Origin: Candidatus Cloacimonadales bacterium
GTDB lineage: Bacteria; Cloacimonadota; Cloacimonadia; Cloacimonadales; JAFGVF01
Assembly: GCA_963678315.1 (NCBI GenBank)
Contig: OY782781.1
Location: forward strand, 1,710,071 to 1,774,070
Direction of reading: 5' to 3'
DNA length: 64,000 nt
Position numbers and translations under genes: made by a program. Below are positions 1-36,581 of this stretch, in pieces. Numbering within the stretch: position 1 is the stretch's first letter; each line of letters begins with the position of its first letter. Below the pieces are notes generated by a model. The model did not search any database. It worked only from the letters and a program-made list of their open reading frames with translations, and was not told the DNA's origin.

Positions 1-360
1 CTCTTTGTTGATTAACCCTTACAGGGTATCAATGGATTTGGGATTGTAGCCATCCCTGGCTACGAAAAGATTTGCGTAAGCATGAATAAAGTTCAGCCTA
101 TCGGCGGATGCTTACACTCCTATGGTTAAACTGGGATTGTAGCCATCAGTCTTCGCCTGACACGGTTCCAGTTTGTCAATATTACCCCAACGGGGTAAAT
201 TATCCAAAGCCCATGATTTCAATCATGGGTAGCAATAGTCCCCAATATTACTAGTCCTAGAGGGACTTCTTTATCAAATATATAGCTAGCCAACATCAGA
301 AAAGTACTTTCAGCACTATCTAACAATTATATGCTCTTACCTAGCTTTAAAAAGCTAGGC
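1..360. repeat. Mosaic hairpin-module repeat cluster R1, left part (cut by window edge, split by the IS at 361)
   Basis: Same ordered modules as 6251-7428 and 14805-15431: GGATTG-gtagcca/tggctac hairpin-GAAAAG (41-69), gcgtaagcat/atgcttac stem (74-115), aaactggga/tccagttt stem (128-174), ccccaacgggg, 20-bp palindrome cccatgatttcaatcatggg (210-229), agtcc-tagag-ggact, and cctagcttt-aa-aaagctagg (340-359). Confidence 0.9.
339..360. repeat. Left copy of the 22-bp direct duplication flanking the IS (hairpin-containing target)
   Basis: ACCTAGCTTTAAAAAGCTAGGC is identical to 2032-2053. Empty-site copies of the host repeat (e.g. 6498-6519) have it only once. Confidence 0.85.
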
Positions 361-2031
361 CAGACTGCTGACAAAGTAGAAAAAAGGTGTTTACAGCCAA
401 TTTTAGTTTTCATCTGATAGTTGATAGATTTTTTAGTATTGGTGATGATATTGTTGCATAAGTTCACTATGGGAGACAATATACCCAAAATAATCAAAAA
501 ATTTGAGTATTTTTGTTAAAATAGAACCCTTTTTTAGCTTTTTATTGATTCTCTTAAAGTATTTAACTAATTTTACTAAATTTTGAGTACAAGCTGTCAT
601 TAGAGCTTGTTCTTTAACTTTTTCAAGTCCTCTATATCGTGCATATCGATATCCATGATTTTGTTTTGCATTAGCAAAACTCCTCTCAATAGTCTCTTTT
701 CGTCGCTTATAAATCTCTTTACCACAGAATGTTAAACGATTCATATTTATCTTGTCTTTATATTTTTCCCAGACATGCCGATTTAGTACTTTCCTCCTTG
801 TTTTATTTGAAGTACATTTAGATAAATGAGGACAGTTTTTACAGTCTTCAGCATTTGATACGTATTCTTTGTAGCCCTCTCTTCTTGTTGTTTTGTAATG
901 TAATAATTTGTTATTTGGACAAATATATTGGTCGTTGACTGAGTCAAATTTGAATTTATTCTTGCTGAAAAATCCTTTTTTATGGCTACCTCTTTTGTAC
1001 CCTATTACCCCCATTATTCCTTTTTCACATAAAAAACGACAATTATCTACAGTATTATACCCAGCATCTAAGCCTACAGCTATAACATTAAAATTAAACC
1101 TTTCAATCTGCCGAAGAAGACGAGATTTATATACCACTGCATCATTTATATTCCCAGGTGTTATAAATACATCTGTTATAAAATTACATTTAGGATCCGT
1201 TGTCCTATGGTCTAAATAAAAGAAGCCTTGTGGTTTGCGGTCTCGTGCCATAAAACCACTGTCTGGATCTGTTGTGCTGGATTTAATTGTCTTGGTTTCT
1301 TCCTGTGGTTCCTTAGGAGGAAGTGGTTTTATATTGTGTTTTTTTCTGTCTTCTGCGACTGCTTCATCCAAATCTTTAATATATTCTTTTGTAGTTCTTT
1401 TTACTACAATTTTTATGAACTTATTCTTATTCGCATTAGCTTTTATATGGGTTGAGTCTGTATATAAAATTTTCCCATTAACTAAACCATTTTCAATGCC
1501 TAACTTAACAATATTATCAAAAATCTCTTGAAATAAATCATTATTAGCAAATCGTCTTTTACGAGTTTTACTTATAATTGAATGGTGAGGAATTTTATCA
1601 TTAAATCCGAACCCTAAAAACCATCTATATGCAAGATTAACTTGTATTTCTTTAAATATTTGACGTTCTGATTTAATACCAAAGAGATAACCTATTAATA
1701 TTATTTTAAAAAGAGTTATTGGATTAATAGCAGGTCTACCAAAAGTCTCATTGTATGTGTCTTTCATTATATCATAAACGAAAGAGAAATCTATATATTC
1801 ATCAAAAAACCTAAGGATATGATCGTCTGGAACCTGTTCTTCTAAATTTACAAGCTCGAATTCGTATTGTTTTCTATATTCTTCTTTAATCATTTTATCA
1901 CCTCTAATTATATGCCTATCATATAATAAGGAGTAATATTGTCAAGTCTATTTGTGCTTTTTCTGGGTTGTTTAGTACAGAAAAAACATACGAAAATCAC
2001 ACATTGATTACATGACTTTGTCAGCAGTCTG
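361..2031 (-). mobile_element. IS1182-family (IS5-like) insertion sequence, 1671 bp
   Basis: Perfect 17-bp terminal inverted repeats CAGACTGCTGACAAAGT (361-377 and reverse complement of 2015-2031). Single transposase ORF. Flanked by a 22-bp direct duplication ACCTAGCTTTAAAAAGCTAGGC (339-360 and 2032-2053) that is single-copy in the uninterrupted repeat units. Confidence 0.9.
433..1893 (-). CDS. DDE transposase, IS1182/IS5-type (InsH-like N-terminal domain plus C-terminal DDE domain)
   Basis: 486-aa ORF. N-terminal FGRPAINPITLFKIILIGYLFGIKSERQIFKEIQVNLAYRWFLGF is the typical IS5/IS1182 N-domain. C-terminal ...YKRRKETIERSFANAKQNHGYRYARYRG signature. RBS GAGGTGA lies upstream of the ATG. Confidence 0.9.
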   Translation of the reverse strand: MIKEEYRKQYEFELVNLEEQVPDDHILRFFDEYIDFSFVYDIMKDTYNETFGRPAINPITLFKIILIGYLFGIKSERQIFKEIQVNLAYRWFLGFGFNDKIPHHSIISKTRKRRFANNDLFQEIFDNIVKLGIENGLVNGKILYTDSTHIKANANKNKFIKIVVKRTTKEYIKDLDEAVAEDRKKHNIKPLPPKEPQEETKTIKSSTTDPDSGFMARDRKPQGFFYLDHRTTDPKCNFITDVFITPGNINDAVVYKSRLLRQIERFNFNVIAVGLDAGYNTVDNCRFLCEKGIMGVIGYKRGSHKKGFFSKNKFKFDSVNDQYICPNNKLLHYKTTRREGYKEYVSNAEDCKNCPHLSKCTSNKTRRKVLNRHVWEKYKDKINMNRLTFCGKEIYKRRKETIERSFANAKQNHGYRYARYRGLEKVKEQALMTACTQNLVKLVKYFKRINKKLKKGSILTKILKFFDYFGYIVSHSELMQQYHHQY

Positions 2032-2236
2032 ACCTAGCTTTAAAAAGCTAGGCTTTGGACAACTAATCCTTTCAGGATAACATCTGAAACTCTTGCCTTT
2101 AGTCCGGCTGCATTCAAGCATGATTAAAGATGCACATTCAGAAAGGACTGTGATCGGCGAAGACGATTGAATGCACCCCCTCCAAAAAAGGATTGCAAGC
2201 ATCCCTGGCTACGAAAAGATTTGCGTAAGCATGAAC
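2032..2236. repeat. Repeat cluster R1, right part (continues the unit interrupted by the IS)
   Basis: Continues ...cctagctttaaaaagctaggctttggacaa-atcctttcaggat-...tagtccggctg, then the gcat(t/g)caagcatgatt(a/g)aagatgc(a/g)cattcagaaaggactgtgatcggcgaagacgattgaatgcac module, then ggattgcaagcatccctggctacgaaaagatttgcgtaagcatgaa. Collinear with 7184-7395 and 15283-15431. Confidence 0.9.
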
Positions 2237-2438: not shown

Positions 2439-5400
2439 ATGAAGAAAATAGCTTTAACTTTTTTATTAATAGTTATTGTAGTAGAAGTTTTTTGTATAAG
2501 TCATGAAGAAGGCGATTTAGTAGAGTTTTTCTTTGGAGAAGAGAACAATTGTGAATATGATAACTGGGTATCTCATGTATCGGAAAAACAGAATTTTAAT
2601 AGTCAAAATACTTATGCTCCCTTTGATGTACAAACGAATGGATTTGGCCAATTTACAATGGCAAGTTCTCAGCAATTAACTTCATGGCAAAGTGCAGTGG
2701 ATTTATTTTTCAATGAAGAGTATGAGCTAGCTCAAGAAACTTTAATAGCATCTAATATTCCATATAAAGTTGTAGGGTTTATATATAATGATCAAGAATA
2801 TATGATGCTAAGGGAAGATATTAATTTGCAATACAATGATGATAATAATACAGACGATGAAAGCGATGATGAATTGGGTGCATTTGATTTTGGTTGGGGA
2901 ATATTTATATATAATCCAGCATCAGGGAGCCCTGCTATGGTGTCAGTTCCTCATCCTAACGATAGTTTTGTAGGAACTTATCTAAGTGTTCAAGCATTTC
3001 TAGATTGCAATTGTAAATATCTTATGATTAATGGGACAGGTAGAGAGTTAAATACAAATCAATGTGACCCAACAAGAAACAGTAATCATCCTTATGTCTA
3101 TTTCTATGAAAAGGCAGCTAATCAAATAAGATTGACCCAAGAAAGACATGAGATTGCTTTGCAGTTTGAATCATACGATTGGGACAAACATGAAGCTATG
3201 GCAAGTGTTCAGTTATCAGGTAAAATCGAATCACCCTTGGGACTTCCAGTTAGAGACTGGTCTAGTAGTCATAATGATGTAATTCAAAATACTGATTACA
3301 TTGTGTTTGAAGAAGATTACTTTGGTAATAATAGTTTAGTTAACTTGAACGAATATTATGGACTTTATGAAAAGTATTCTATACCAACTATTTATCACGA
3401 TTCTCTATTTACATCTGGTCCTATCGATATTGTTGGATATACTGGATCTTCATTGACTGAAGTAAATATCCAGGATTATAATTATTGGTCATCTTATAGT
3501 CCCTTTATACATATTGCAGTAGATGAATTTCCAAACTGTTTTGAGCAAACAGAAGAAAATTATTTCTGGTTTTATGGCTATAATAATATGGATAATACTT
3601 GGGATTGGGAAAATAGATATAGCAATTGTGTTGAATATTATCATCCATTCATGACCGCATTAAATGAAGCACTAAATTGCTTTACTCAAATGGAGGATGG
3701 GGATAATCTCCCTCCAGCAGTAACTAATTTAAATTCTGAAAATACATTTAATGGTGTGAAGTTAAGTTGGCAAGGCCAAACTCCCTATGATTTTGATTCT
3801 TATCTACTTTATGTTTCAGAAACTCCGATAAGTAATGGTAATTATACGGTCTATGATAGTTCAGAAGAGAATGGATTGTATCAGCTAGGTTTTCCAGGTA
3901 CAAAGAATGTTCTTATAGAAGATCTAAATGTGGGAACAGATTATTATTTCGCCATTGCTCAGCGTGATGTTTACGGCAATGTTTCAGAAATCTCGAATGA
4001 AAGCAACTCTACAACTTTACAAGCTTCTTTTAATAGATTTAGAACTATTGTAAAACAAGACACTATCGTTGTTGAAGCTTTTATTGAGGAAAGCACAAAT
4101 TGTTCTTTATTTAGGCTTTACAGGAAAGAAGAAGGTCAAGAATATCAAGAATTATATAGTGGGAATTATATAAATCGCTACTATGATTCTGATATAGAAA
4201 ATGATCTTGTTTATTCTTATAAGGTTTGTGCAATTAGCAACCTAAATGAGTTAATTCAAGTTTCACCTGAGTTGACAGCTTCTTGTCCTACATATCACAA
4301 GCTACAGTTGTCTGGTGGTAATCTTTTAACCGATTTTACTTTTGGCAAAAGCTCATGTGCAACAGATGGCTATGATTTAGGTTATGATCAAAACTATGAT
4401 ACTATGAATAGTTTTGAACTTTACTCGGAAATAGACTATTTGCAGGTCGCGAATGGGCAGGTAGAAAGAGAAGTTATTGGTGAATTTGATAGTAATGAAA
4501 CATACCATAAATTTGATTTACATTTATACGCTCCTTATATAGGAACTTCTGATCTAGTCTTCTCTATGAGTAGTGATGATCTTGCTAATACAACAGACAA
4601 ATTCTATATTTCCTACAATAATGAGCTTTATAATCTAAGAGAGGGAGATATCCAGCTTTCTGTCGAAACAACTAACCATGCTTTTGAACTATATTGGGGT
4701 AATCTCCCTGCAAATGTAAGCTTTGCTAATGATTCAGGAATCATTAGTGGAAGAGGTATCTCAGATTCAATTGAGTGGACAAGCCAGTTTCCTGAACTAG
4801 TTGATTCTTATTCTGTATATTTCAAGAATGAGCAAGATTCTATATTAGTAGCTGATAACTTATCATCAGATATATCTAGCATTGACTGGGAATATCAAGG
4901 CAATGAAACTATAAGATCAATCAATTGCTATGTTATGGTTCACACTTTACAAGGGCAAGATATTGTCTTTAAGAATAACCACTCTTCTTTACTTTTGGGT
5001 AATTTAGATAATATAATTTTAGATAATGAAGAATCTTCGAACTGGTTAGTATCATATCCTTTTTCTCAAGCTCAGAATATCAATGAAATTAGTAATCTAG
5101 ATCAAGTATATTCTTTTAACAATGGCGAATATCTTCAGCAGGATAACATCATTAATAATGAAGGATATCTCGCTGTTATCAATGGATCTGTTGAAATCTC
5201 TATTTTAGGTGAATGTCTAGTTGATGAAAATACTATCTTTTTAAATCAAGGTTGGAATTTAATTGCTAATCCTCATCCTATAGAATATAATGTGTCAGAC
5301 TTACTATTCTACTATGGAAACACTTTTAGGTCACCTAGTTACGTTATAACTCAAGAAGCAATTTCTCCTTACTTTATGGGGATTAGAAATGATTCTTACA

Positions 5401-6236
5401 GCGAAATAAGGACAATAAAGTCTTATGAAAGTGTGTTTGTTTATGTCTTAACTGATGAGATGATAGGGCTACAATTTAATCCTAACCACCAAGAAAACTT
5501 TAACATAACTGAAGAATCAGGTCAATATGCTAGTCTAGAATTTTCCACTATTACTGGAGCAAAAGATCAAATTACTATTGGAGTTTCTGGTAATCAGTTT
5601 GGGCAGTTTGATACATTCAATCAACTTGTTAAACCGCCCTCAAGACCAATAAGTGGTTTAAATGAAGTATGTCTGTTAGACTTGAATGATGAGAGTATTA
5701 AGCTGCAAAAGCAACTTCTTCCACAGGAACTTGATGGAGAATATTCTTGGAATTATGCTTTTACTAATAGTCAAGATGCCAATGTTCAGGTTAAGATAGT
5801 AGACCATAATCTTAATTCAAATTCTAGTGTAGAATTAGCTCTTAATGGACAGATCTATAATATTACTGAAAACCCAATAACTATTGATTGTAATAATACT
5901 CCTGGTAACTACCAAGGATGCTTGTATCTCGATTCTCCTACTTCAAATTCTCATGATAGTGAAGCTGTAACTGGTGTTTTATCAGTTTACCCAAATCCAT
6001 CATCCAAAAAGTTTAACATTGAGGTTGTAAGCTCTAAATCAAATTACCAAGTATCTATCTATAACATCAAAGGACAAAGAGTTAAAAAGTTCAATGTGAG
6101 GGATAATAAATCATCAAGAAATACTCTTACTTGGGGAAAAGATAACTCATTAAATAACATCGCTTCAGGAATTTACTTTGTTAAATATTCTGATAAAGAT
6201 ACAAGTGATATAAGGAAGATCTGTTTGATTAAGTAG
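2439..6236 (+). CDS. Giant secreted surface protein (1265 aa) with FN3-like domain and T9SS C-terminal sorting domain
   Basis: RBS AGGAGG and an N-terminal signal peptide (MKKIALTFLLIVIVVEVF). FN3-like segment PPAVTNLNSENTFNGVKLSWQG...YYFAIAQRDVYGNVS. C-terminal tail VYPNPSSKKFNIEV...SIYNIKGQRVKKF...SGIYFVKY is typical of Por_Secre_tail. Confidence 0.85.
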   Translation: MKKIALTFLLIVIVVEVFCISHEEGDLVEFFFGEENNCEYDNWVSHVSEKQNFNSQNTYAPFDVQTNGFGQFTMASSQQLTSWQSAVDLFFNEEYELAQETLIASNIPYKVVGFIYNDQEYMMLREDINLQYNDDNNTDDESDDELGAFDFGWGIFIYNPASGSPAMVSVPHPNDSFVGTYLSVQAFLDCNCKYLMINGTGRELNTNQCDPTRNSNHPYVYFYEKAANQIRLTQERHEIALQFESYDWDKHEAMASVQLSGKIESPLGLPVRDWSSSHNDVIQNTDYIVFEEDYFGNNSLVNLNEYYGLYEKYSIPTIYHDSLFTSGPIDIVGYTGSSLTEVNIQDYNYWSSYSPFIHIAVDEFPNCFEQTEENYFWFYGYNNMDNTWDWENRYSNCVEYYHPFMTALNEALNCFTQMEDGDNLPPAVTNLNSENTFNGVKLSWQGQTPYDFDSYLLYVSETPISNGNYTVYDSSEENGLYQLGFPGTKNVLIEDLNVGTDYYFAIAQRDVYGNVSEISNESNSTTLQASFNRFRTIVKQDTIVVEAFIEESTNCSLFRLYRKEEGQEYQELYSGNYINRYYDSDIENDLVYSYKVCAISNLNELIQVSPELTASCPTYHKLQLSGGNLLTDFTFGKSSCATDGYDLGYDQNYDTMNSFELYSEIDYLQVANGQVEREVIGEFDSNETYHKFDLHLYAPYIGTSDLVFSMSSDDLANTTDKFYISYNNELYNLREGDIQLSVETTNHAFELYWGNLPANVSFANDSGIISGRGISDSIEWTSQFPELVDSYSVYFKNEQDSILVADNLSSDISSIDWEYQGNETIRSINCYVMVHTLQGQDIVFKNNHSSLLLGNLDNIILDNEESSNWLVSYPFSQAQNINEISNLDQVYSFNNGEYLQQDNIINNEGYLAVINGSVEISILGECLVDENTIFLNQGWNLIANPHPIEYNVSDLLFYYGNTFRSPSYVITQEAISPYFMGIRNDSYSEIRTIKSYESVFVYVLTDEMIGLQFNPNHQENFNITEESGQYASLEFSTITGAKDQITIGVSGNQFGQFDTFNQLVKPPSRPISGLNEVCLLDLNDESIKLQKQLLPQELDGEYSWNYAFTNSQDANVQVKIVDHNLNSNSSVELALNGQIYNITENPITIDCNNTPGNYQGCLYLDSPTSNSHDSEAVTGVLSVYPNPSSKKFNIEVVSSKSNYQVSIYNIKGQRVKKFNVRDNKSSRNTLTWGKDNSLNNIASGIYFVKYSDKDTSDIRKICLIK

Positions 6237-6311
6237 TAATCGTTTCTATGGGTTGCAGTCAGCTTGACTGCGAAAGTATTTAACTGGGATTGTAGTGTAG
6301 CCATAAGTCTG

Positions 6312-7270
6312 AGTCTCACACGGTCCCAGTTTGTCCATAAAACCCCAACGGGGTAAATTATCCAAAGCCCATGATTTCAATCATGGGTAGCAATAGCCCC
6401 CAATATTACTAGTCCTAGAGGGACTTCTTTATCATATATATAACTACCCAACATCAGAAAAGTACTTTCAGCACTATCTCAACAATTATATGCTCTTACC
6501 TAGCTTTAAAAAGCTAGGCTTTGGACAATTAATCCTTTCAGGATAACATCTGAAACCCTTGCCTTTAGTCCGGCTGAGTTTCACACGGTCCCAGTTTGTC
6601 TATAATACCCCAACGGGGTAAATTATCCAAAGCCCATGATTTCAATCATGGGTAGCAATAGACCCCAATATTACTAGTCCTAGAGGGACTTCTTTATCAT
6701 ATATTTAGCTAGCCAACATCAGAAAAGTACTTTCAGCACTATCTTACAATTATATGCTCCTACCTAGCTTTAAAAAGCTAGGCTTTGGACAATTAATCCT
6801 TTCAGGATAACATCTGAAACTCTTGCCTGTAGTCCGGCTGAGTTTCACACGGTCCTAGTTTGTCCATAATACCCCAACGGGGTAAATTATCCAAAGCCCA
6901 TGATTTCAATCATGGGTAGCAACAGATCCCAATATTACTAGTCCTAGAGGGACTTCTTTATCATATATATAACTAGCCAACATCAGAAAAGTACTTTCAG
7001 CACTATCTAACAATTATCCCAGATGATGCATTAGGTTTGACGAAAATAGTGGAGATTATTTCAGCAAAATAGCTTCCAGAATCGAAGCTTGAATAATATA
7101 TATTCTAGTTGAGATTATGGAAGTTATTCTTGCCAAATAATATAGTGCTATTTTTCAAGTCCTAGTGCATTATTTGGGATTATATGCTCTTACCTAGCTT
7201 TAAAAAGCTAGGCTTTGGACAATTAATCCTTTTAGGATAACATCTGAAACTCTTGCCTTTGGTCCAGCTG
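6312..7270. repeat. Tandem array of three 264-265-bp units (6312-6576, 6577-6840, 6841-7270 with a MITE at 7018-7178)
   Basis: The units align end to end with only scattered substitutions. Each carries ccccaacgggg, cccatgatttcaatcatggg, agtcctagagggact, aaagtacttt, cctagctttaaaaagctagg and atcctttcaggat. Confidence 0.95.
7018..7178. mobile_element. 161-bp MITE-like non-autonomous element inserted into repeat unit 3
   Basis: Imperfect terminal inverted repeats of about 34 bp (cccagatgatgcattaggtttgacgaaaatagtg vs reverse complement of agtgctatttttcaagtcctagtgcattatttggg). No ORF. Flanked by a 5-bp duplication ATTAT (7013-7017 and 7179-7183) that is single in uninterrupted units (acaattatatgctc). 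Confidence 0.8.
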
Positions 7271-7498
7271 CATGCAAGCATGATTGAAGATGCGCATTCA
7301 GAAAGGACTGTGATCTGCGAAGACGATTGAATGCACTCCTACAAAAAAGGATTGCAAGCATCCCTGGCTACGAAAAGATTTGAGTAAGCATGAACAAATT
7401 TCAGCCTATCGGCGGATGCTTACACTCCAATAGTGGCAGCAAACAACCAAAACAATAGCAAATAGTTAACAACTATCAACCTTTTCATAAAAAAAGTA

Positions 7499-7527
7499 TT
7501 GACAACCTCCAGAAATAAAAATATAAA
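7499..7527 (+). promoter_or_regulatory. Putative sigma70-type promoter for the 7588 operon
   Basis: TTGACA (7499-7504), 17-nt spacer, TATAAA (7522-7527), about 60 nt upstream of the RBS AGGAGG and ATG. Confidence 0.5.
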
Positions 7528-7587
7528 CAAATAAGGTTATATATTCGAGAGATAGGAAAATAAAATAAAAAAATACAGGAGGAAAAA

Positions 7588-10500
7588 ATGAAAAAATCTC
7601 TTTTAGTTTCATTTTTTTGTTTACTAACACTTATGCTTTTTAGTGAAGCAGTTGAACTAGATATACATGAATTAGATTTTGGTCAAGTAACAGTTAATAC
7701 ATCTCTTACTCAAACAGTTATAATTACTTCTCAGATTAGTCAAAATATTACCTTAGATTATACTTTAGAAGATTTTGCATTCAATATAACACCAGCATTT
7801 TTTGAAATAGAGGCAGGACAAAGTCAAGCCATCGAAATCACTTTTACTCCAGATGCTGAGAATAATTTTAGTAAATTTGTTATGGTCTCTGGTTCAGTTT
7901 ATGGAAATGACCAATTAAATATAAGTGGCACTGGTATTGTTGCTAATATTGATGTAGATTTAGAAAGTTACGATTTCGGTCCTGTAGCTATTAATACTGT
8001 AGATAGTACCCAAGTAACTGTCACTAACAGTGGATCAGGAAACCTTCTTGCTAGTATTAGCTCAGACAACCAAGCCTTTGATCTTTCAAAGACTAACTTA
8101 GACATTAGTCCAAACAATTCAGATTCCTTTTGGATAAGATTTTCTCCCCAATGGTTAGCTGAAGAGAATGCTACAATAACCATAGTTTCAAATGCCTTTA
8201 ACAATCCAAACTATGAGATAGATCTAACAGGCTCAGGAAGGAGTGATATGTCGGGACAAGTTTCTGGAATCTGGTCACTTGCTAACAGCCCATATTATAT
8301 CATAGAAAATACTATAGTGCCGGATGGACAAAGTCTAACTATTGAGCCAGGGGTAGAAGTTGTATTTGCTGGTCATTATGGATTTGTTATTGAAGGATCA
8401 CTGATAGCTCAAGGCACTGTCACAGATTCTATCTATTTTCATGGACAAGACAATGTTAAACAAGGTTTTATTGTTATAGATGATGCAGATAATGAGATTG
8501 AATTAAATTACTGTCAGTTTAGATATTTATCAAATAATAGGTATTATTTCTCTGATGATTTTGAAGATTACAATTTCGCTGATAACTGGACAGGATCGGG
8601 ATATTCATATGGCAGGACTAATAATGACCATTATCAAGGACATTATGGAGCTCGTGTTTGGGCCTATGGTCAAGATACCTATATTATGTCCAGACCTATT
8701 ACAGTCTTAAAATCGTGTGTTATATCCTACTGGTTTAAGATTACCAGTTCTCATAATAGCTGTAACTCAAGGGTTGAGTTTCGGGTTAATGGTGGAGCAT
8801 GGCAGAGATTGTATTATACTAATAATGGAACAACTTACGGTTGGACCTACAAAGAGCATGATATTTCATCCTATGTTAACAATGGTGATGAAATACAATT
8901 AAGGTTCTATAGTAATGAATATTCCACAGATTATTCTCATTATGATCAATCTATGTATATTGATGAAGTAAAAGTCTTTAGTACTTCAACAATTTTTGTT
9001 GAAGATTCAATTGTTGGCTTTTCAAATTCAATTTTAGAACATTGTACTGGAAATGCAATTTTCTTTGAAGGAGAATCTAACTGCGATATCTCTAACACTT
9101 CGATTGTAAATAATGATGGAGATGTTTTAGTTTCTGCAGGCCCGGTAAATATCTTCAGTTCAAAAATATCTCATAACAATGGTAATGGAATATATGTTTC
9201 AAGCGATTTAACTATTACTAATACAATAGTATCTAACAATAACGGCTATGGAATAAATTCTTCGAATGCATTAGATATTAACCATGCCGTAATAGCAAAT
9301 AATTATGATAGGGGTATTTATTTAGATGGAAGCGATTTTTCTCTAATAACTAACTCAATAATTTACAATAATGATAATGATGAGCATAGACAAATTGATT
9401 TAGGGTCTGGTGCTACTTTGAATACTAGTTATTCTTGTGTAGAATCTTATACGGAATATGGAATTTCAAATATTGGAAACTTTTATTGGGGTGAAGGTTG
9501 TATCGAGTCTTACCCTCAATTCATAGATTGCGATTATCATCTGTCTCCAAATTCACCATGTGTAGATGGTGGTTTTCCTTGGGAGCATGATGGCAATATG
9601 CCTTACGGTTTAGGCACAGTTGTCTCTGATATGGGGGCTTATGGTGGATCTAACAACACTTATTGGGGTGGAAATCCAATACCTGATGGGGCTCCTGTAA
9701 TTGATAATATAGTAGATTTACCTAATGACCAGGGGGGATTAGTTGGAATACAGTTTAATGGTTCTATCTTTGATTATGAACATTCTGGCTATGATATAAG
9801 TCATTACTCATTTTGGAGGGAGATGAATATTGATCCTAGAACTGATGAAGTTAGTAATTCTGATGCTAGGAGTAACAAATATGCACCACGAGTTCTAACA
9901 AGGGATGGTGAGTATTGGGAATATGTAGGTCAGGTGCAAGCGCAAGGTTTTGAAAACTATGGGTACTCTGCTGAGACACTAGCTGATTCAACAATTTATG
10001 GTGATTTTGCCTCTAGCTTTATTGTAATAGCTCATACTGAGGATGATGATATATACTTTACATCATCTCCTTTATCTGGATCTTCTATAGATAACTTAGC
10101 ACCAGACCAACCAAGTAGAATCTTGGCTGATGGTGCTTATGGTCAAATGACTTTTGAATGGACTCCTAGTCAATCTGAAGATTTGCATTACTATAAGCTT
10201 TACAGAGGAAATGAAGAAAACAACTGGGATAGAAGTTATCAGGTTAATGATACAACATTTGTTGATCTTGAGGCTCAAGTAGATAATCAATACTACTATT
10301 GTTTGAAAGCTGTAGATATTCATGGTAATGAGAGTGATGGTCAGTCTCTTGCTATGGAGTTAAATTACTCAGCTTATGATTTGCATGAGGGAGCAAACTT
10401 ACTTTCATTTAGGTTTATTGATGAAGATAGTAGTTTAGATAATATGTTAGCAGATTTAGGTTCTTCTATTGTTAAAGTAATTGGAGAGGGACAAGTTGCT

Positions 10501-11523
10501 ATTAAGAATGATGATGGTCAATGGATTGGTTCATTAACAGAGCTTACTTATGATAAAGGTTACTGGTTAATTATGAATAATGAAGAAAGACTGGAACTCA
10601 TGGGATCAAGAAATACTAGTAGTGCTAGCTACAGTTTGCATGAGAATGCTAATCTAATATCTTATCCATACGCTTGGGGCAATGACCTTGCTTCAGCTCT
10701 TCCAGATGATGTTGAAGCTTGTATCTCAGCTATTATCGGAGAGGGACAGGCTTGTATGAGATTGGAAGATGGTAGATGGTTAGGCTCTTTAACCCATTTC
10801 GAGAAAGAAAAAGCTTATTGGGTAATTGCTAACCAAGATATTGAACTTGAGTTTAATATGCCTAGTGAAGATAGAAGAAGTAATCGTAATGATGCGGAAT
10901 TACCACAAATGTTTACTTATAAGCAATCTGCTAATCAAGCTTTTTACTTAACTGGAATAGTAGAAATGAATGGTGTTGAGTTGACATTAGAAGATTATTT
11001 GCTTGTTTATAAAGATGATGTTGTTATTGGAGCTAGCAAATATATTGGTGAGCAAACTACCTTAGCTGCCATGGGTAACGATGGAAATGAGCTTACTTAC
11101 AACTATGCTAATCAAGGTGATTTAGTCTCTATTAAGATTTGGAAAGCTGAAACTAATCAACTCTATGATACTAATGTAAATATTGACTGGGCAAACAACA
11201 CAATATCCAGAGTTGAAATTGCTTCTGTTACAGAAAATGATGAAAACTTAATCCTTCCTGTTGTTGATTTTGTCGGACAAAACTATCCTAATCCATTTAA
11301 TCCAGAGACTACTATTAACTTTGGAATTAAAAAGAATTCTCATGTAAAAGTTACAGTTTATAACATTAAGGGACAGAAGATAAAGACTATCTTAGACCAG
11401 AATATGAAAGCTGGTTATCATAATGTAGTTTTTGAAGCTGGAAAATATGCTTCAGGGCTATATTTATATAGAATAGAGACTCCTGACTTTAGTGAAACTA
11501 AATCAATGATTTTAATAAAATAG
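7588..11523 (+). CDS. Giant secreted surface protein (1311 aa): Ig-like (ASH/HYDIN-type) repeats, right-handed parallel beta-helix, choice-of-anchor-J-like domain, FN3, T9SS C-terminal domain
   Basis: Signal peptide present. Repeated ELDFGQV/YDFGPV Ig-like modules. Beta-helix repeats (NNDGDVLVS...SHNNGNGIYVSS...VSNNNGYGINSS...IANNYDRGIYLDG...IIYNN). Tail NYPNPFNPETTINF...VTVYNIKGQKIKTI...SGLYLYRIET. Confidence 0.85.
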   Translation: MKKSLLVSFFCLLTLMLFSEAVELDIHELDFGQVTVNTSLTQTVIITSQISQNITLDYTLEDFAFNITPAFFEIEAGQSQAIEITFTPDAENNFSKFVMVSGSVYGNDQLNISGTGIVANIDVDLESYDFGPVAINTVDSTQVTVTNSGSGNLLASISSDNQAFDLSKTNLDISPNNSDSFWIRFSPQWLAEENATITIVSNAFNNPNYEIDLTGSGRSDMSGQVSGIWSLANSPYYIIENTIVPDGQSLTIEPGVEVVFAGHYGFVIEGSLIAQGTVTDSIYFHGQDNVKQGFIVIDDADNEIELNYCQFRYLSNNRYYFSDDFEDYNFADNWTGSGYSYGRTNNDHYQGHYGARVWAYGQDTYIMSRPITVLKSCVISYWFKITSSHNSCNSRVEFRVNGGAWQRLYYTNNGTTYGWTYKEHDISSYVNNGDEIQLRFYSNEYSTDYSHYDQSMYIDEVKVFSTSTIFVEDSIVGFSNSILEHCTGNAIFFEGESNCDISNTSIVNNDGDVLVSAGPVNIFSSKISHNNGNGIYVSSDLTITNTIVSNNNGYGINSSNALDINHAVIANNYDRGIYLDGSDFSLITNSIIYNNDNDEHRQIDLGSGATLNTSYSCVESYTEYGISNIGNFYWGEGCIESYPQFIDCDYHLSPNSPCVDGGFPWEHDGNMPYGLGTVVSDMGAYGGSNNTYWGGNPIPDGAPVIDNIVDLPNDQGGLVGIQFNGSIFDYEHSGYDISHYSFWREMNIDPRTDEVSNSDARSNKYAPRVLTRDGEYWEYVGQVQAQGFENYGYSAETLADSTIYGDFASSFIVIAHTEDDDIYFTSSPLSGSSIDNLAPDQPSRILADGAYGQMTFEWTPSQSEDLHYYKLYRGNEENNWDRSYQVNDTTFVDLEAQVDNQYYYCLKAVDIHGNESDGQSLAMELNYSAYDLHEGANLLSFRFIDEDSSLDNMLADLGSSIVKVIGEGQVAIKNDDGQWIGSLTELTYDKGYWLIMNNEERLELMGSRNTSSASYSLHENANLISYPYAWGNDLASALPDDVEACISAIIGEGQACMRLEDGRWLGSLTHFEKEKAYWVIANQDIELEFNMPSEDRRSNRNDAELPQMFTYKQSANQAFYLTGIVEMNGVELTLEDYLLVYKDDVVIGASKYIGEQTTLAAMGNDGNELTYNYANQGDLVSIKIWKAETNQLYDTNVNIDWANNTISRVEIASVTENDENLILPVVDFVGQNYPNPFNPETTINFGIKKNSHVKVTVYNIKGQKIKTILDQNMKAGYHNVVFEAGKYASGLYLYRIETPDFSETKSMILIK

Positions 11524-11576
11524 AACAAAGCAAGGTCATGCGATTGTGTAATCGTATGACCTTAAAGGATATAAAA

Positions 11577-13394
11577 ATGAAATATAGACTTTTATTACTA
11601 TTATCGATAGCTTGTGTTCTATTAGTTGCTGAAACTCCGGCTAACTTTGTTTATAATCAATCTTCTCAACAGTGTTTCTATTTTATAGAGACTGCAAAGC
11701 TTGATGATCTTGTTCTTTCTGAGAACGATTGGATTGGAGCATTTAAAGATGGAACATGTGTTGGAAGTGCTCAATGGGTCGGAGAAAATACAACTATTCC
11801 ACTAATGGGAGATGATGGCTTTGAATATTCTAGTGGTTATTGTCAAACTGGTGATATTCCTCAGTTTAAGGTATGGGACAGTGAGACAGATTGTTATTGG
11901 GATTGTAGTCAAACATCTGAACTAAATAGCTGGACTAATAATGGAACCTATCTTGTTTCTTACCTATATGCTTATAGTAGCAGTCCAATGATAGAAGTCT
12001 CTCAAGAGAATATCAATCTGGGAGAAATAGTTGTTGGACAATCAGCTTTAAAAGAAATCGTGATAACTAATTCTGGGGATGAATTGCTGATTGGTCAGCT
12101 TCAGGTAAGTGGAGATTTTTATATAAGCAGCGATAATGCTTCTTTCCAGATAGAATCTTCAGATTCGATAATAGTTAGCATTGCTATCTTGCCAGAAGAA
12201 GAAATTTTGTATCAGGGAAGCCTGCAAATAGCGAGTGATTCAGCAATAAATTCCTTGATTGAAATAGCTGTTTCAGCAAGTGGAATTATGGCTCATATAT
12301 CTAGTGATATCAGACTTATGCAGTTTAACAATGTTTGGAAAGATCATCAAGTTGCTAAGTCTTTAACTCTTCTCAATGATGGCTCTTCTGAATTAACTAT
12401 TGATGGTTATTCTTTTTCAGATGATTGCTATTCTATAGAAGACGGTCCTACAACAATCTTTCCAGGACAAAGTCAAGAATTAACAATCATATTCCAGCCT
12501 GATGATTTCAACCAACACAATGGAAGCTTGGATATATCAACAAATATAGGAAACTATTCTATTGATTTAGCCGGTAATGGTTATCTGTTAGATGCAGATT
12601 TTGTTACAGCTATAGATTCTATTGAAATTGGTAATCCCATGCAATTTATAAATAACAGCCAAGGTGATATTCTCAGTTACTCTTGGGATTTCGCGCAACT
12701 AGCTAGCTCAGATCAAGAAAATCCAGAATATCTTTTTCCACAGATAGGAAGCTATCAGGTAGTCTTACAAGTCAGCGATGAATATTTCACAGATGAAATA
12801 AGTAAAGATATTCTAGTCTATGGAGTAGCAGAAGGGGAAACATCCACTCAAGAACTAGAATTTTCAAGCAATTATATAGGAGTAGTTTCTGATACGCTTA
12901 GATTAGCAATATATGCAAGAAGAACAGGTGACTTGATAATTGATGAACTTTCTTTTAGAAATGATATTGGAGCATACTCAATTCCGAATATAAATCTACC
13001 AGTGTCTTTAGCTCCAAACGATAGTTTATGTCTTGATATCATATTTACACCAGTAGCTTCTGGTAATAATATAGACTTTCTAGATATGACAACTAATGCA
13101 GGTCAATTTTCTTGTTTCTTAGAAGGTCTCGGTTTGATTGCACCAGCTAAAGCAGTGACAGGAATAAATATATTACCTGTTGAGGGAAATGTTTATCTTG
13201 AATGGGAGCCAGTAGTTGAGACTATACTTGATACACCAGTAACTATTAGTTATTATAAAATTGAAGCAAGTACAACGCCTAATGGACCTTATGTTTGGAT
13301 TGGTATATCTCCAACAAACAGCTTTACTCAGTTTGGAGTAGCCAACTTTTCTAAAAGATATTTTTATAGAATAATTGCTGTATCAGAGGACTAG
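11577..13394 (+). CDS. Secreted surface protein with Ig-like (ASH-type) modules, a PKD-like domain and a C-terminal FN3-like module; no T9SS tail
   Basis: The ORF track gives 11538. The preferred start is ATG 11577 (MKYRLLLLLSIACVLL signal peptide, AAAGGA RBS). It begins 54 nt after the stop of the upstream gene, so probably the same operon. Modules INLGEIVVGQS.., MQFNNVWKDH.. are Ig-like. PKD-like segment FINNSQGDILSYSWDF...YQVVLQVSDE. Confidence 0.8.
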   Translation: MKYRLLLLLSIACVLLVAETPANFVYNQSSQQCFYFIETAKLDDLVLSENDWIGAFKDGTCVGSAQWVGENTTIPLMGDDGFEYSSGYCQTGDIPQFKVWDSETDCYWDCSQTSELNSWTNNGTYLVSYLYAYSSSPMIEVSQENINLGEIVVGQSALKEIVITNSGDELLIGQLQVSGDFYISSDNASFQIESSDSIIVSIAILPEEEILYQGSLQIASDSAINSLIEIAVSASGIMAHISSDIRLMQFNNVWKDHQVAKSLTLLNDGSSELTIDGYSFSDDCYSIEDGPTTIFPGQSQELTIIFQPDDFNQHNGSLDISTNIGNYSIDLAGNGYLLDADFVTAIDSIEIGNPMQFINNSQGDILSYSWDFAQLASSDQENPEYLFPQIGSYQVVLQVSDEYFTDEISKDILVYGVAEGETSTQELEFSSNYIGVVSDTLRLAIYARRTGDLIIDELSFRNDIGAYSIPNINLPVSLAPNDSLCLDIIFTPVASGNNIDFLDMTTNAGQFSCFLEGLGLIAPAKAVTGINILPVEGNVYLEWEPVVETILDTPVTISYYKIEASTTPNGPYVWIGISPTNSFTQFGVANFSKRYFYRIIAVSED

Positions 13395-13398
13395 TGGA

Positions 13399-14793
13399 CA
13401 ATGTCATTAAGTTAAGATTTGACTAAAATAATTAACTATAAAAACTATGTAATAAATGAATAATTAGGGTCATAATGAAAAAAAAATATTGAAATTAATA
13501 AGTTATGTGTTAGGTTTAGATTCAACTGTAAATAAATATAAAATAGGAGAAAAGTCTTTCTTGAGAAAACGTAAATTTAGCTTTAAATCATTAGCAATAC
13601 TCGTTCTTATGAAAAGTGTAAAATCACTTCAGATTAGACTTAATGAGTTCTTTGATAGATTTGTAGAAGGCTGCGAAACAGTAAGTTCAAGTGCTTTTAC
13701 TCAAGCACGTCGAAAATTTTCTTACAAACTATTTGTAGACTTAAATAAAGATATAATTGTAAAAGAGTTTTATAATGATAAAAGTTATAAAAGGTATAAG
13801 GGTTTCCGATTAATAGCCATAGATGGTACACGCGTCTCAGTTCCAGATAACCAAGAAACTAGAGAATATTTTAATACAATTCCTACCCAGACTCCAAGTG
13901 GAAAAGTTGGTGAGCACGTAAGAGCAATAGCCTCAGTAGCATATGACGTTATGAATAATATAGTAATCGATTCCACAATTACACACTCAAGAGAATCAGA
14001 AAGAGCTCTTGCCATAAATCATTTAAAACATCTCGGTAAAGAAGATCTTGTAATTTTAGATAGAGGTTATCCATCTTATGAACTTGTAAGTGATTGCTAT
14101 GATAAAGGAATAAATTTTTTAATCAGGTGTGGTACCTCTTGGATAAAAGAAATATCTTTGATGAAGAACAGTAATAAAGAGAGTGAAATTATTACTCTAA
14201 AGAGATCTAGACTTAGAGTACAAAAGAATAAGACTAACCTTACAGATGAGATACAGTTAAGATTAGTAAAAGTTATTTTAGATTCTGGTGAAGTTGAGAT
14301 ACTAGCGACATCTTTGTTAGATGAAGAACTTTATCCTACAGAAGAGTTTAAACGTTTATATTGGCAAAGATGGGGAGTCGAAACATTTTATGGCGTTATT
14401 AAGGGACGTTTATCTTTAGAAAACTTTACAGGTAAATCAGTTGAATCAATAAAGCAAGATTTTTATTCAACTATTTTTCTATCTAATCTAGAAACAATAC
14501 TTACCGAAGATGCTGAGAATGAATTAAAAAAGAGAAGCCAAAACAATAAATATAAACAGAAAGTAAATAAAGCTATCTCATTTAATGCTATAAAAGACAA
14601 TCTTTTTTATTTATTATGCACAGAAAGTGATATAGATAAACTGATTATTAAATTAAATAAAATATTTATACAAACACCTGTTCCAATAAGACCTAATAGA
14701 AAATTTGAACGGTCGAAAGGTAAAGCATATCAATGGCTTTGCTTTTGGAAGAGGAATAAGAAAAATGTATATTAGCTTAACTTAATGACATTG
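13399..14793 (+). mobile_element. IS4-family insertion sequence, 1395 bp
   Basis: Perfect 18-bp terminal inverted repeats CAATGTCATTAAGTTAAG (13399-13416 and reverse complement of 14776-14793). 11-bp target-site duplication GGACTAGTGGA (13388-13398 and 14794-14804). Single DDE transposase ORF. Confidence 0.9.
13489..14775 (+). CDS. IS4-family DDE transposase
   Basis: 428-aa ORF with an exact Y(2)R(3)E(6)K signature (YWQRWGVETFYGVIKG) and DDE-region motifs (LIAIDGT, VILDRGY). The annotated start is TTG. An ATG plus A9 tract at 13475-13486 lies in another frame (see findings). Confidence 0.9.
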   Translation: MKLISYVLGLDSTVNKYKIGEKSFLRKRKFSFKSLAILVLMKSVKSLQIRLNEFFDRFVEGCETVSSSAFTQARRKFSYKLFVDLNKDIIVKEFYNDKSYKRYKGFRLIAIDGTRVSVPDNQETREYFNTIPTQTPSGKVGEHVRAIASVAYDVMNNIVIDSTITHSRESERALAINHLKHLGKEDLVILDRGYPSYELVSDCYDKGINFLIRCGTSWIKEISLMKNSNKESEIITLKRSRLRVQKNKTNLTDEIQLRLVKVILDSGEVEILATSLLDEELYPTEEFKRLYWQRWGVETFYGVIKGRLSLENFTGKSVESIKQDFYSTIFLSNLETILTEDAENELKKRSQNNKYKQKVNKAISFNAIKDNLFYLLCTESDIDKLIIKLNKIFIQTPVPIRPNRKFERSKGKAYQWLCFWKRNKKNVY

Positions 14794-14804
14794 GGACTAG
14801 TGGA

Positions 14805-15431
14805 TATGGTTGCAAACTGGGATTGCAAGCATCCTTGCTTGCGAAGGTATGTTAGGATTGTAGCCATCCCTGGCTACGAAAAGATTTGCGTAAGCATGAA
14901 CAAAGTTCAGCCTATCGGCGGATGCTTACACTCCGATGGTTAAACTGGGATTGTAAGCAACAGTCTAGCCTGACACGGTCCCTACATGCGAAAGACCATT
15001 CTCAATTCTGGATACTTCTGAGTTGTGGTAAAAATCTATGTCGTCCCTTTGGGACTCAAATCATTTATGTCATTGTACATGGGGTACAAGACCCCATGCT
15101 AATACATGTCGTCCCTTTGGGACTAATACCCCAACGGGGTAAATTATCCAAAGCCCATGATTTCAATCATGGGTAGCAATAGATCCCAATATTACTAGTC
15201 CTAGAGGGACTTCTTTATCATATATATAACTACCCAACATCAGAAAAGTACTTTCAGCACTATCTCAACAATTATATGCTCTTACCTAGCTTTAAAAAGC
15301 TAGGCTTTGGACAATTAATCCTTTCAGGATAACATCTGAAACCCTTGCCTTTAGTCCGGCTGCATGCAAGCATGATTGAAGATGCGCATTCAGAAAGGAC
15401 TGTGATCGGCGAAGACGATTGAATGCACTCC
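14805..15431. repeat. Repeat cluster R3
   Basis: Two tandem GGATTG-hairpin-GAA words (gcaagca/tgcttgc, then gtagcca/tggctac). Next the gcgtaagcat/atgcttac module and extra words gtccctttgggac (x2) and catggggtacaagaccccatg. Then one full 264-bp-type unit and the catgcaagcatg...gaatgcactcc module. Confidence 0.95.
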
Positions 15432-15481
15432 ATTTTTTAATTAATCTTTACAGGGAAAATAAGATAAAATTAAAATTGTTC

Positions 15482-15662
15482 TTGACATAATTGTTGAAGT
15501 GATAAAACTAACATAAATTAAAGATATTAGATTATCTACCTAGCGATTCTGCCCTTTTACAGATATTGGATAGGTTAATTAAGTTTTAGAAATATTAAGA
15601 AGAAACTTTATAATATATTAACAAAGAAGGGCGGATAGTAAAATATCCGCCCTTTTTATTTT
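15482..15662 (+). promoter_or_regulatory. infC operon leader: putative promoter plus terminator/antiterminator attenuator (candidate L20-responsive leader)
   Basis: TTGACA at 15482-15487. The intrinsic terminator at 15627-15662 lies only about 20 nt before the infC RBS. The upstream segment TCTGCCCTTTT (15548-15558) mimics the 3' terminator arm and can pair with the 5' arm AAGGGCGGA, giving mutually exclusive structures. Confidence 0.5.
15627..15662 (+). terminator. Rho-independent terminator inside the infC leader
   Basis: AAGGGCGGATA (15627-15637), loop, TATCCGCCCTT (15644-15654), followed by TTTTATTTT. Confidence 0.8.
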
Positions 15663-15692
15663 AGAAGATAACTCAAAAAATGGAGGTTTCTT

Positions 15693-16313
15693 ATAATAAG
15701 GATAAGAAAAGGTAAGGCTAAGACAAAAGAAGTCGTACCAAAAGAGAACATTAATGAACATATTAGAGCTAGAGAAGTTAGACTAATTGGTTCAGACGGG
15801 AATCAAGTTGGAGTAGTCTCTATTAATAGAGCTAGAGAGATTGCTGAACAAAGTGGAATGGATTTGGTAGAAATATCACCAAATGCAAAACCACCTGTAT
15901 GTAAGGTAATGGATTTTAGCAAATACTATTATCAAAAAGAACGTAAAGCACGTGATGCAAGAAAGAATAGACATGAAGTTCAGGTTAAAGAAGTTAAATT
16001 TGGACCAAACACAGAAGAACATGACTATTTGTTTAAGAAAAAGAATGCTTTAAAATTCTTATTACAACATCACAAAGTAAAGTTTACTGTAAGATTTAGA
16101 GGCCGACAAATGGCTCATAAAGATATTGGTCAAGACCTTTTAGAAAAATTATCTAAAGAGTTAAAGCCTTTAGTTGATGTCGATCAACCAATAAGAGCAG
16201 AGCATAGAATTATGTCAGTAGTCGTTTCTCCAAAGAAAGATATTGAAGCAATAGCTAAAGATTATAATGAATTCGGTGAAAAAATAGAAACTGAATCAGA
16301 AACAGAAGAATAA
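15693..16313 (+). CDS. infC: Translation initiation factor IF-3, non-AUG (AUA) start
   Basis: The ORF track starts at internal Met 15858. The same frame is open back to 15672 and encodes the conserved IF-3 N-domain (..NINEHIRAREVRLIGSDGNQVGVVSINRAREIAEQSGMDLVEISPNAKPPVCKVMDF). No ATG, GTG or TTG occurs in that stretch. GGAGG (15683-15687) precedes ATA codons at 15693 and 15696. Confidence 0.85.
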   Translation: MIRIRKGKAKTKEVVPKENINEHIRAREVRLIGSDGNQVGVVSINRAREIAEQSGMDLVEISPNAKPPVCKVMDFSKYYYQKERKARDARKNRHEVQVKEVKFGPNTEEHDYLFKKKNALKFLLQHHKVKFTVRFRGRQMAHKDIGQDLLEKLSKELKPLVDVDQPIRAEHRIMSVVVSPKKDIEAIAKDYNEFGEKIETESETEE

Positions 16314-36580: not shown

Positions 36581-36581
36581 T

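Follow-up and report, generated by a model that had tools for sequence, protein, structure and literature searches.

What packs six dense clusters of small hairpins between the genes of an uncultured member of the Cloacimonadota: selection on RNA, a machinery that shuffles genes, or mobile DNA? We addressed this question in a stretch of 64,000 nt from contig OY782781.1 (positions 1,710,071–1,774,070; Candidatus Cloacimonadales bacterium, assembly GCA_963678315.1), hereafter called the window. The window has a G+C content of 33% and codes for many large proteins with C-terminal sorting domains of the type IX secretion system (T9SS). Our answer, to which we give a probability of roughly 60%, is that each cluster is a nest of mobile repeats that are non-autonomous, built on hairpins and active at the level of DNA. 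The clusters would combine units resembling repetitive extragenic palindromic (REP) sequences and bacterial interspersed mosaic elements (BIMEs) with miniature inverted-repeat transposable elements (MITEs), as layered selfish DNA. We observe that elements are nested, that targets are duplicated and occur both filled and empty, that hairpin stems are compensated, that strains are polymorphic, that insertion sequences (ISs) are targeted to hairpins, and that gene indels are flanked by repeats.

Most of this evidence comes from comparison with a sister strain (ENA ERZ21831104 ctg97479l, 3.02 Mb), whose loci L004, L008 and L011 span the whole window and whose flanking DNA is 98.9–99.3% identical to it. 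A 12.5-kb locus, L073, is from the same or a very close species. L013, L071 and L072 are loci from three more distant genomes (PheS 83% identical), and L017 is a locus on an IMG/VR contig. The PheS of the window is 100% identical to that of a metagenome-assembled genome in ENA; by this protein, the closest named relative is 'Candidatus Cloacimonetes bacterium 4572_65' (83% identity).

The initial annotation placed six repeat clusters, R1 to R6, in the window. All six are where it put them, and their repeats are shared far beyond chance. As it delimited them, these intergenic clusters sum to ∼3.55 kb of the 64 kb, and ∼2.8 kb is self-similar by blastn; the initial annotation gave ∼4 kb. Comparison of the window with itself links 1–360, 2015–2236, 6217–7460 and 14813–15431 as direct repeats (63–100% identity to reference copies), and ties R6 (55587–56263) to other clusters as an inverted copy (85–87%). 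R4 (36370–36584) has a single part in common with R2, the 161-nt module of 7018–7178 (84–91% over three blocks). R5 is linked to R6 by a palindrome of ∼60 nt and to R3 by small hairpin words. Six sites carry the 20-mer CCCATGATTTCAATCATGGG in the window against 0.00 expected, and a second 20-nt pattern, S21, has eight matches against 0.04 expected. Intergenic DNA has 2.5 times as many perfect hairpins per kb as coding DNA (6.8 versus 2.7). A coding tandem repeat (264 being 3 × 88) was rejected since all frames are closed; 6237–7587 has no open reading frame (ORF) longer than 54 aa.

Much of the apparent mosaic is a single composite. It consists of a 264-nt core with head and tail modules, is found in R1, R2 and R3, and recurs in R6 as an inverted, diverged copy. 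The core unit is built from two modules, each a large hairpin, a linker and a small hairpin. Its words are CCCC-AAC-GGGG, CCCATGATT-TC-AATCATGGG, AGTCC-TAGAG-GGACT, AAAGTACTTT and the pair CCTAGC..GCTAGG plus ATCC-TTTC-AGGAT. On the plus strand of R1–R3, the composite runs from one to three units of a 33-nt hairpin family, H, through an inverse H with a large loop, one ACTCCTA heptamer and half an H fused to S21, to at least one core unit; a tail with an inverse H unit carrying S21 in its loop follows, and then further H units. Within the window, composite copies are 95–100% identical and their words are not shuffled independently. The words listed in the initial annotation are real, but here most of them are co-linear parts of the one composite, which was copied as a whole, rather than independent units. 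The composites owe their large size to several unrelated types of element that have become nested and been duplicated in tandem: a classical MITE with its target site duplicated, the 20-nt insert of the hairpin loops, arrays of heptamers, and two ISs.

The MITE, which we call MITE X, occupies 7018–7178 (plus strand). It is 161 nt long, has inverted ends of 18–23 bp (CCCAGATGATGCATTAGG / CCTAGTGCATTATTTGGG; 19 of 23 end positions match), contains no ORF and is flanked by direct copies of ATTAT (7013–7017 and 7179–7183). ATTAT lies on both sides of filled sites and is single in three other copies of the core unit, which are empty sites. MITE X is present at three window loci (R2, R4 and a fragment in R6) and in the sister strain's R1, at a site that is empty in the window, and its end CATTATTTGGGATTAT recurs in L013. 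It thus has everything by which MITEs are defined: inverted ends, a target-site duplication, noncoding sequence, multiple copies, and filled as well as empty sites. No autonomous partner with matching ends is present in the window, where both IS elements have different ends. Matches of Rfam NsiR8 (25 bits versus a gathering threshold of 61) and of plant microRNA families over MITE X (7042–7211; L004 4840–5009) were below threshold (20–25 bits versus 44–100), and we rejected them as chance matches of a long hairpin.

The H unit reads NNT-N-GGA-NN-G-(5 variable bases)-CA-TCCY-TG-(5 complementary bases)-C-GAA, with ATCCY as its loop. Its stems in the window are GTAGCCA, GCAAGCA, GCATTCA, GCAGTCA and GTAAGCA; those in other genomes include GCGGGCA, GTGGGCT, GTGGACA, GCCAGCA, GCCATCA, GCTGGCC and GGAAGCG. 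More than 12 fully compensated stems occur across four related genomes, in both orientations. When 11 variants, selected as hairpins, are aligned by hand, 96.8% of cells are paired and six of nine pairs change on both sides; none of 500 shuffles reaches this. A covariance model made from these variants has 51 matches (E ≤ 1) in 205 kb of Cloacimonadota loci. All 14 of its matches in the window lie inside R1, R2, R3 and R6, on both strands. Forty distinct H sequences, in an alignment fitted to the model, are 91.6% paired, with eight of nine pairs changing on both sides. Despite the way these sets were selected, the flank and loop common to the variants point to homology. In 568 kb of unrelated loci, many of them chosen for containing half the H motif, no match exceeded 19.2 bits; the Cloacimonadota loci gave 20 matches of at least 28 bits. 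Moreover, H is the one word clearly conserved between genomes (PheS only 83% identical) whose other words mostly differ. The conserved GGA flank and ATCC loop are complementary to each other. Imperfect stems contain G.T and never A.C on the strand with the TCCY loop (3 versus 0, too few for significance).

H units bracket other modules inside the clusters. Inverted pairs occur at 37–124, 7345–7432 and 14851–14938 of the window and at 212–318 of L017; direct neighbours (14816/14851) and singlets are also found, all in few copies. Each cluster has two to five H units among many unrelated hairpins, irregularly spaced by 35–93 nt and in mixed orientation. A CRISPR array of hairpin-plus-GAAAG units was rejected on account of irregular spacing, variable sequence, mixed orientation and the lack of cas domains in the window ORFs. 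Variant v1 (GTAGCCA-TCCC-TGGCTAC, 5′ flank GGGATT, 3′ flank GAAAAG) lies at 46–63 and 14860–14877 on the plus strand (covariance model, 40 bits). Variant v4 (GCAGTCA-GCT-TGACTGC; 6246–6277, plus strand, 29.2 bits) stands 19 nt past the stop codon of the gene at 2439–6236. The inverse H with the large loop, GTAAGCA..TGCTTAC with an insert of ∼23 nt, was found by the covariance model on the minus strand at 76–115, 7384–7423 and 14890–14929; its R6 copy (55654–55707) is on the plus strand. The insert in these four loops has a mini-stem of its own, which is compensated between copies (GCC..GGC versus ACC..GGT).

S21 is another insert of H loops. This 20-mer, (T/A)CAGTCTTCGCCTG(A/T)CAC(G/A)G, has the left arm of H directly on one side and the TCC of the loop directly on the other. 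It is found in the loops of three H variants: at L004 3938–3990; at 56117–56160 (orthologous to L011 7440–7492) and L073 2608–2660; and at 7288–7343, 15380–15435 and 2128–2185. The same hairpins occur without it (46–63, 14825–14842 and 56029–56046). A related 20-mer lies inside the R4 copy of MITE X and is absent from the R2 copy. The H loop is also a place of joining. A 27-nt H unit in the R1 tail, precisely lacking in the sister strain, is a hybrid whose left arm is from v2 and whose right arm, from v1, does not pair with it, and R2 contains the non-pairing hybrid GCAAGCA-TCCC-TGGCTAC (7354–7371). Such a hybrid hairpin marks a join inside the H loop. S21 inserts and loop joins are features expected of very small mobile or recombining units. 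A resemblance of S21 (CAGTCTTCGCCTGACACGG) to the end of an IS1182-like element (CAGACTGCTGACAAAGT) was too weak and was not used.

Another module matches a described RNA motif. At gathering thresholds (GA), an Rfam search of the whole window returned 6S RNA and one repeat-related match, Acido-Lenti-1 (RF01687), at 15078–15124 on the plus strand (40.5 bits, GA 37, E 9.9e-06). The matched module is CATGGGG-TACAAGA-CCCCATG, linker CTAATACATGTCG, TCCC-TTTG-GGGA-CT. Acido-Lenti-1 scores 43.9 bits in the R5 region of the sister strain (L008 11861–11907, minus strand). The initial annotation had held that a match of its modules to an already described repeat or noncoding RNA family would count against it; this applies in part, one module being RF01687. 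The abundant pair of the core unit, CCTAGC..GCTAGG plus ATCC-TTTC-AGGAT, falls below the RF01687 threshold (22.9, 22.9 and 20.9 bits; 22.7 in L004). Its first stem, CCUAGC/GCUAGG, which is part of a 20-bp palindrome, is the Acido-Lenti-1 seed consensus. We list this two-hairpin module as Acido-Lenti-1-like, on the plus strand, at 6499–6545 (22.9 bits, sub-threshold), 6763–6809, 7193–7223 and 15285–15330, and at 340–359 joined to 2053–2078.

The Acido-Lenti-1 seed holds 89 sequences, mostly from Lentisphaera araneosa, the others from Koribacter, Rhodopirellula, a Geobacter and marine and soil metagenomes (PMC2864571). Its authors reported the motif from two phyla, sometimes near group II introns, and rated it as likely RNA with covariation (Weinberg et al. 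2010, PMC2864571). The seed is made up largely of tandem copies in Lentisphaera; many members lie on the same contig, 69, 74, 110, 115, 192 or 200 nt apart, and their printed flanks are strings of other hairpin words. The seed extends across several phyla, as expected of horizontally spread repeats. Like the seed, the matches in our strains have both hairpins and, beyond both stems, the single-stranded linker CUAAUnUAUGYCGU and a 3′ ACU, and tandem seed copies stand inside hairpin-word arrays as here. Published occurrences of the motif were limited to Acidobacteria, Lentisphaerae and metagenomes, where it was taken for a candidate small RNA (sRNA); in this Cloacimonadota DNA it forms a single part of a larger mosaic, and its commonest copy in the window is below threshold (22.9 bits). 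Taken together, these sequences suggest that the Acido-Lenti-1 'sRNA' is a module of repeat arrays.

Full-size IS elements enter the same clusters. An IS1182-like element (361–2032, minus strand), with a 486-aa DDE transposase (433–1893), is inserted at the palindrome of R1, which is duplicated on its two sides (340–360 and 2033–2053). The orthologous site in the sister strain is empty, and there and in five other copies the palindrome is single. A 98.4%-identical copy in L073 (880–2610) is flanked by two complete copies of a different hairpin word of 22 bp, GAGACGTTTGGAAAAACGTCTC. Two different hairpin words have been duplicated whole, and the target of the IS1182-like element is therefore the hairpin as a structure. 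REP elements, too, are targets of IS elements (IS1397 and IS621). An IS4-like element (DDE_Tnp_1; 13398–14793, plus strand) with a 10-bp duplication, GGACTAGTGG, has landed on the stop codon of the gene at 11538–13394, just before R3; the TAG stop of this gene lies within the duplication (region 13388–14803).

Large structural differences between the two ∼99% identical strains are found almost only inside the clusters. In the sister strain a 281-nt head unit is repeated three times in tandem. The R5 spacer measures 1090 versus 432 nt in the two strains and the R6 spacer 763 versus 1088 nt; a 180-nt module belongs to R6 in the window, but its counterpart in the sister strain (86% identity) lies in R5. 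A segment of 8.5 kb (7588–14775 plus repeat halves) is present in the window and absent from the sister strain. It holds the IS4-like element and two genes whose products have Ig-like domains; the product of the first also has a T9SS sorting tail. A 238-nt direct repeat of the core unit marks the limits of the segment, the signature of homologous recombination between two copies. The sole structural difference seen outside the clusters concerns two tandem FG-GAP/T9SS paralogues in the sister strain (554 and 552 aa; L008 6253–9588) in place of one in the window (36582–38240), so that here, too, the strains differ in the copy number of genes for secreted proteins.

We propose that the clusters grow in layers. 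The 33-nt H, the 20-nt S21, the ∼46-nt pair of Acido-Lenti-1 type and the 161-nt MITE X would spread through intergenic DNA. New units would insert preferentially into or beside the hairpins of earlier copies, giving composites of 260–700 bp. Entire composites would then be copied. Unequal crossing-over at short words common to them would give tandem duplications, composites would recombine among themselves, and their hairpins would attract full-size IS elements. The result would be fast structural turnover between strains, including gain and loss of large T9SS cargo genes flanked by two copies. We infer that the H, S21 and Acido-Lenti-1 units are moved by a trans-acting enzyme, of HUH/Y1 type or other, that recognizes a hairpin on one DNA strand.

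A bolder version of this proposal, which we offer only tentatively and think unlikely, treats the H, S21 and Acido-Lenti-1 units together as an undescribed class of micro-mobile DNA. An enzyme would copy units of 20–50 nt into single-stranded DNA hairpins, at the loop or in the flanks, across the FCB (Fibrobacteres–Chlorobi–Bacteroidetes) and PVC (Planctomycetes–Verrucomicrobia–Chlamydiae) groups and the Acidobacteria; Acido-Lenti-1 would be a transposition substrate instead of an RNA gene, and the GGA flank and ATCC loop would be recognition and cleavage signals.

Several points weigh against clusters made of DNA-level mobile repeats. No transposase or recombinase for the H, S21 or Acido-Lenti-1 units was found in the window and the loci read, a search that was not genome-wide. 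The whole core composite (134–2185 without the IS) has ends that are inverted repeats, yet neither a duplicated target nor an orthologous site lacking the composite was found. Copies were counted in ∼110 kb of DNA from the species (the window, ∼26 kb of extra flank in L004 and L011, and L073), near-identical strains included. The G.T bias on the TCCY strand fits single-stranded DNA and RNA equally, and palindrome-templated repair could yield 'compensated' stems without selection. Finally, all four composite copies are co-oriented with the downstream gene, and three begin 19–30 nt past the stop codon of a co-oriented upstream gene, which points to a possible role in RNA.

That arrangement leads directly to the rival that survives best, though we consider it improbable: the modules would act in cis, as RNA, within untranslated regions of the mRNAs next to them, serving 3′-end protection, termination or insulation, or processing, as REPs do in Escherichia coli, and selection for this role would account for the repetition. 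Many small hairpins on the sense strand do have loops of UUCG, UUUG or GCAA type, and the AGTCC-TAGAG-GGACT hairpin followed by TCTTTATCAT is terminator-like (4 sites versus 1.1 expected). The G.U rather than A.C of imperfect H stems on one strand is also what RNA would give. However, within one and the same cluster H units, and likewise Acido-Lenti-1 units, are found pointing both ways, and folding energy is equally unusual on both strands (z of −3.8 and −3.5). Several words, AAAGTACTTT and ATGCGCAT among them, are zero-loop palindromes for which no RNA hairpin is possible. Furthermore, the genes beside R4 and R5 already have ordinary terminators, cluster content is very different between 99% identical strains, and the words are not conserved between related species.

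A dedicated system of site-specific recombination, similar to an integron or shufflon, that exchanges strands in the H loop and moves cassettes of surface-protein genes is very unlikely in our view. It would account for the direct composite copies that bracket each of two gene blocks (2439–6236 and 7588–13394), the second of which is missing in the sister strain, for the hybrid hairpin joined within its loop, and for the alternative continuations that follow the same ...CATC junction. But no integrase or recombinase gene was found in ∼90 kb, and no window ORF has the integrase or recombinase domain that an integron would need. The 238 nt of homology at the indel make ordinary homologous recombination sufficient, and the clusters also adjoin housekeeping genes (infC, nqr and thyX).

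Least credible of all is that the clusters encode trans-acting structured sRNAs, the Rfam class of Acido-Lenti-1, for example multi-hairpin CsrA sponges: matches above the gathering score, the rating of the motif as likely RNA with covariation, and an opposite-strand H loop that reads CA(G/A)GGATG in all variants (as RNA, CARGGAUG, which matches the CsrA-binding consensus) speak for it, but no promoter or terminator frames the units, they are tandem, nested, IS-interrupted and strain-variable, a cluster has only two to five H units among many unrelated hairpins, and the wobbles on the TCCY strand become A.C mismatches on the strand with the GGA loop, for which we demoted the sponge.

We return to DNA-level mobile repeats, and to how they relate to known systems. 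The REP, BIME and REPIN repeats of Proteobacteria, which RAYT (Y1 HUH) transposases mobilize (Bertels & Rainey 2011, PMC3116915), are the nearest in form. They, too, are short extragenic imperfect palindromes with conserved flanking bases, in both orientations; they form inverted doublets, of which there are some here (L017 212–318; window 46–115); linker motifs and units form clusters of several hundred bp, and units insert into or beside old copies and form tandem arrays. Such higher-order clusters, nested insertions and tandem arrays are documented (PMC3116915). The initial annotation's analogy with BIMEs holds to the extent that H is a truly REP-like unit: a repetitive, extragenic, palindromic short unit with a conserved GGA flank, an ATCCY loop and compensated stems, which occurs in both orientations and brackets modules. 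However, H belongs to another phylum and has no sequence similarity to REPs. Its flank is GGA-NN rather than GTAG, its stem has just 7–9 bp, and the loop is conserved. The stem varies freely, with more than 12 compensated variants, whereas REPs come in one to three 'flavours'. The GTAG start taken earlier as a REP trait belongs to v1 only; other H variants start with GCAA, GCAT, GCAG, GCGG, GCCA or GTGG. The lack of a REP-associated tyrosine transposase (RAYT) was correctly noted: Pfam scans found no Y1 or RAYT gene in the window or ∼26 kb of flanks, and no Y1_Tnp (PF01797) in the window, L004, L008, L011, L013, L017 or L071–L073. Because GTAG is not conserved and no RAYT was seen in ∼90 kb, H stands outside the REP/RAYT family as defined. 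Classical MITEs, which depend on DDE transposases, are matched by module X alone; the other modules lack a target duplication.

Heterocystous cyanobacteria reportedly offer a second parallel, described by Elhai and colleagues in 2008: small dispersed repeats (SDRs), heptamer arrays of short tandemly repeated repetitive (STRR) sequences, and MITEs. SDRs are said to be hairpin-related units of 20–27 nt, nested in one another and in MITEs and placed beside heptamer arrays, with compensatory changes and with insertion polymorphism in the absence of a known transposase, all as here. They come from an unrelated phylum and have apparently unrelated sequences, and the insert described here, by contrast, is specific to the loop of a conserved hairpin family. 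SDRs are also mentioned in PMC3116915.

Searches elsewhere returned little. Scans of viral contigs for H, S21 and MITE X ends gave one true match, L017, the remainder being chance. A scan for CCTAGCTTTAAAAAGCTAGGC of a genome collection that lacks this organism gave one match, which is unrelated; scans of JGI metagenomes for the repeats gave nothing or chance coding matches only, and blastn of R2 against plasmid and phage collections gave no match. A frameshifted gene in L013 (1278–1602, minus strand) encodes a DUF559 domain (Vsr-like PD-(D/E)XK nuclease, 82.6 bits) and has inverted-repeat flanks of ∼56 nt, the whole lying in a tandem repeat of 361 nt. Possibly this is a small mobile element with its own nuclease, and it may lead to an enzyme that acts on the repeats.

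Individual clusters differ in how the modules are arranged. R1 is truncated by the window edge and split by the IS at 361–2032. Its 5′ part (1–360, plus strand; 97–99% identical to sister L004 4484–4815) has head modules and one core unit and ends in the 20-bp palindrome at 340–359. The left end of the core composite (134–170, plus strand) joins an H left arm to S21 (AGTCTTCGCCTGACACGGTTC). Together with 2140–2185 it makes the S21-bearing ends of the composite an imperfect inverted repeat of ∼38 nt. The 3′ part of R1 (2033–2236, plus strand) contains an Acido-Lenti-1-like pair, a tail with inverse H and S21 (2128–2185) and a hybrid hairpin (2195–2212). R2 includes a tandem array of 2.7 core units of 264 nt (6309–7017, plus strand; Tandem Repeats Finder, 95% matches). 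The R2 tail (7185–7434, plus strand) has an Acido-Lenti-1-like pair, an inverse H v3 with S21 in its loop (7288–7343), the hybrid hairpin and an inverse H (7384–7423). R3 (14804–15431, plus strand) comprises H v2 (14825–14842), H v1, an inverse H, an H left arm with S21 (14944–14982), the Acido-Lenti-1 module, one core unit and a tail. R4 (36370–36584, plus strand) is the second copy of MITE X with the extra S21-like 20-mer at 36411–36430. R5 (40420–40700, plus strand) consists of small ATGYCG-hairpin-ACT units, an ACTCCTA heptamer array (40572–40637) and the ∼60-nt palindrome P (40636–40691). R6 (55575–56263, minus strand) is the inverted, diverged copy of head, tail and other modules, with an empty H v3 (56029–56046), an H v2 with S21 in its loop (56117–56160), palindrome P (55587–55653) and a left-end fragment of MITE X (56226–56263).

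Palindrome P is found at four loci. Heptamer arrays sit beside P or beside H units: ACTCCTA is repeated 9.4 times at 40572–40637 and fewer times in the sister strain (L008 12600–12640), and GAGAATT arrays adjoin H units in L017 (362–455) and L071 (4880–4915). Direct repeats at 51670–52576 (period 174–180 nt) and 36990–37939 (156–198 nt) lie inside genes, one for a 1894-aa protein and one for an FG-GAP protein; they encode repeated protein domains of the ordinary kind and have no relation to the repeats between genes.

Two further features of the window are separate from the repeats. A 6S RNA gene (RF00013, 53.8 bits) lies at 21022–21196 on the plus strand, just downstream of the ORF at 20371–20736, and the same layout is seen in L013 and L071. 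The infC leader is conserved (15530–15860; L071 8290–8610; L013 8640–8830), with CTACCTAGCGATTCTGCCC, a GC-rich hairpin AAGGGCGGA..TCCGCCCTT and then ATGGAGGTTTCTTATAATAAGGATAAGAAAAGG. Only part of IF3_N is included in the ORF that begins with ATG, which suggests a non-ATG start, as is usual for infC.

Extragenic palindromic repeats, MITEs and one Rfam motif are already known in kind. The H family, the loop-specific 20-nt insert, Acido-Lenti-1 as a repeat module in a further phylum and the duplication of whole hairpins by an IS1182-like element appear to be new, and a full-text literature search found no paper on such interspersed repeats in Cloacimonadota. Our analysis gives a first anatomical description of interspersed repeats for the Cloacimonadota, of which almost all knowledge comes from metagenomes, and it documents an IS1182-family element that targets hairpin structures with duplication of the whole hairpin. 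The re-reading of Acido-Lenti-1 matters to anyone annotating it as an sRNA. The clusters also explain contig breaks in short-read assemblies, with consequences for assembly and binning: Logan contigs of this organism are only 1.3–3.3 kb. Repeats, rather than point mutations, explain nearly all of the structural difference between ∼99% identical strains, including the turnover of genes for secreted proteins.

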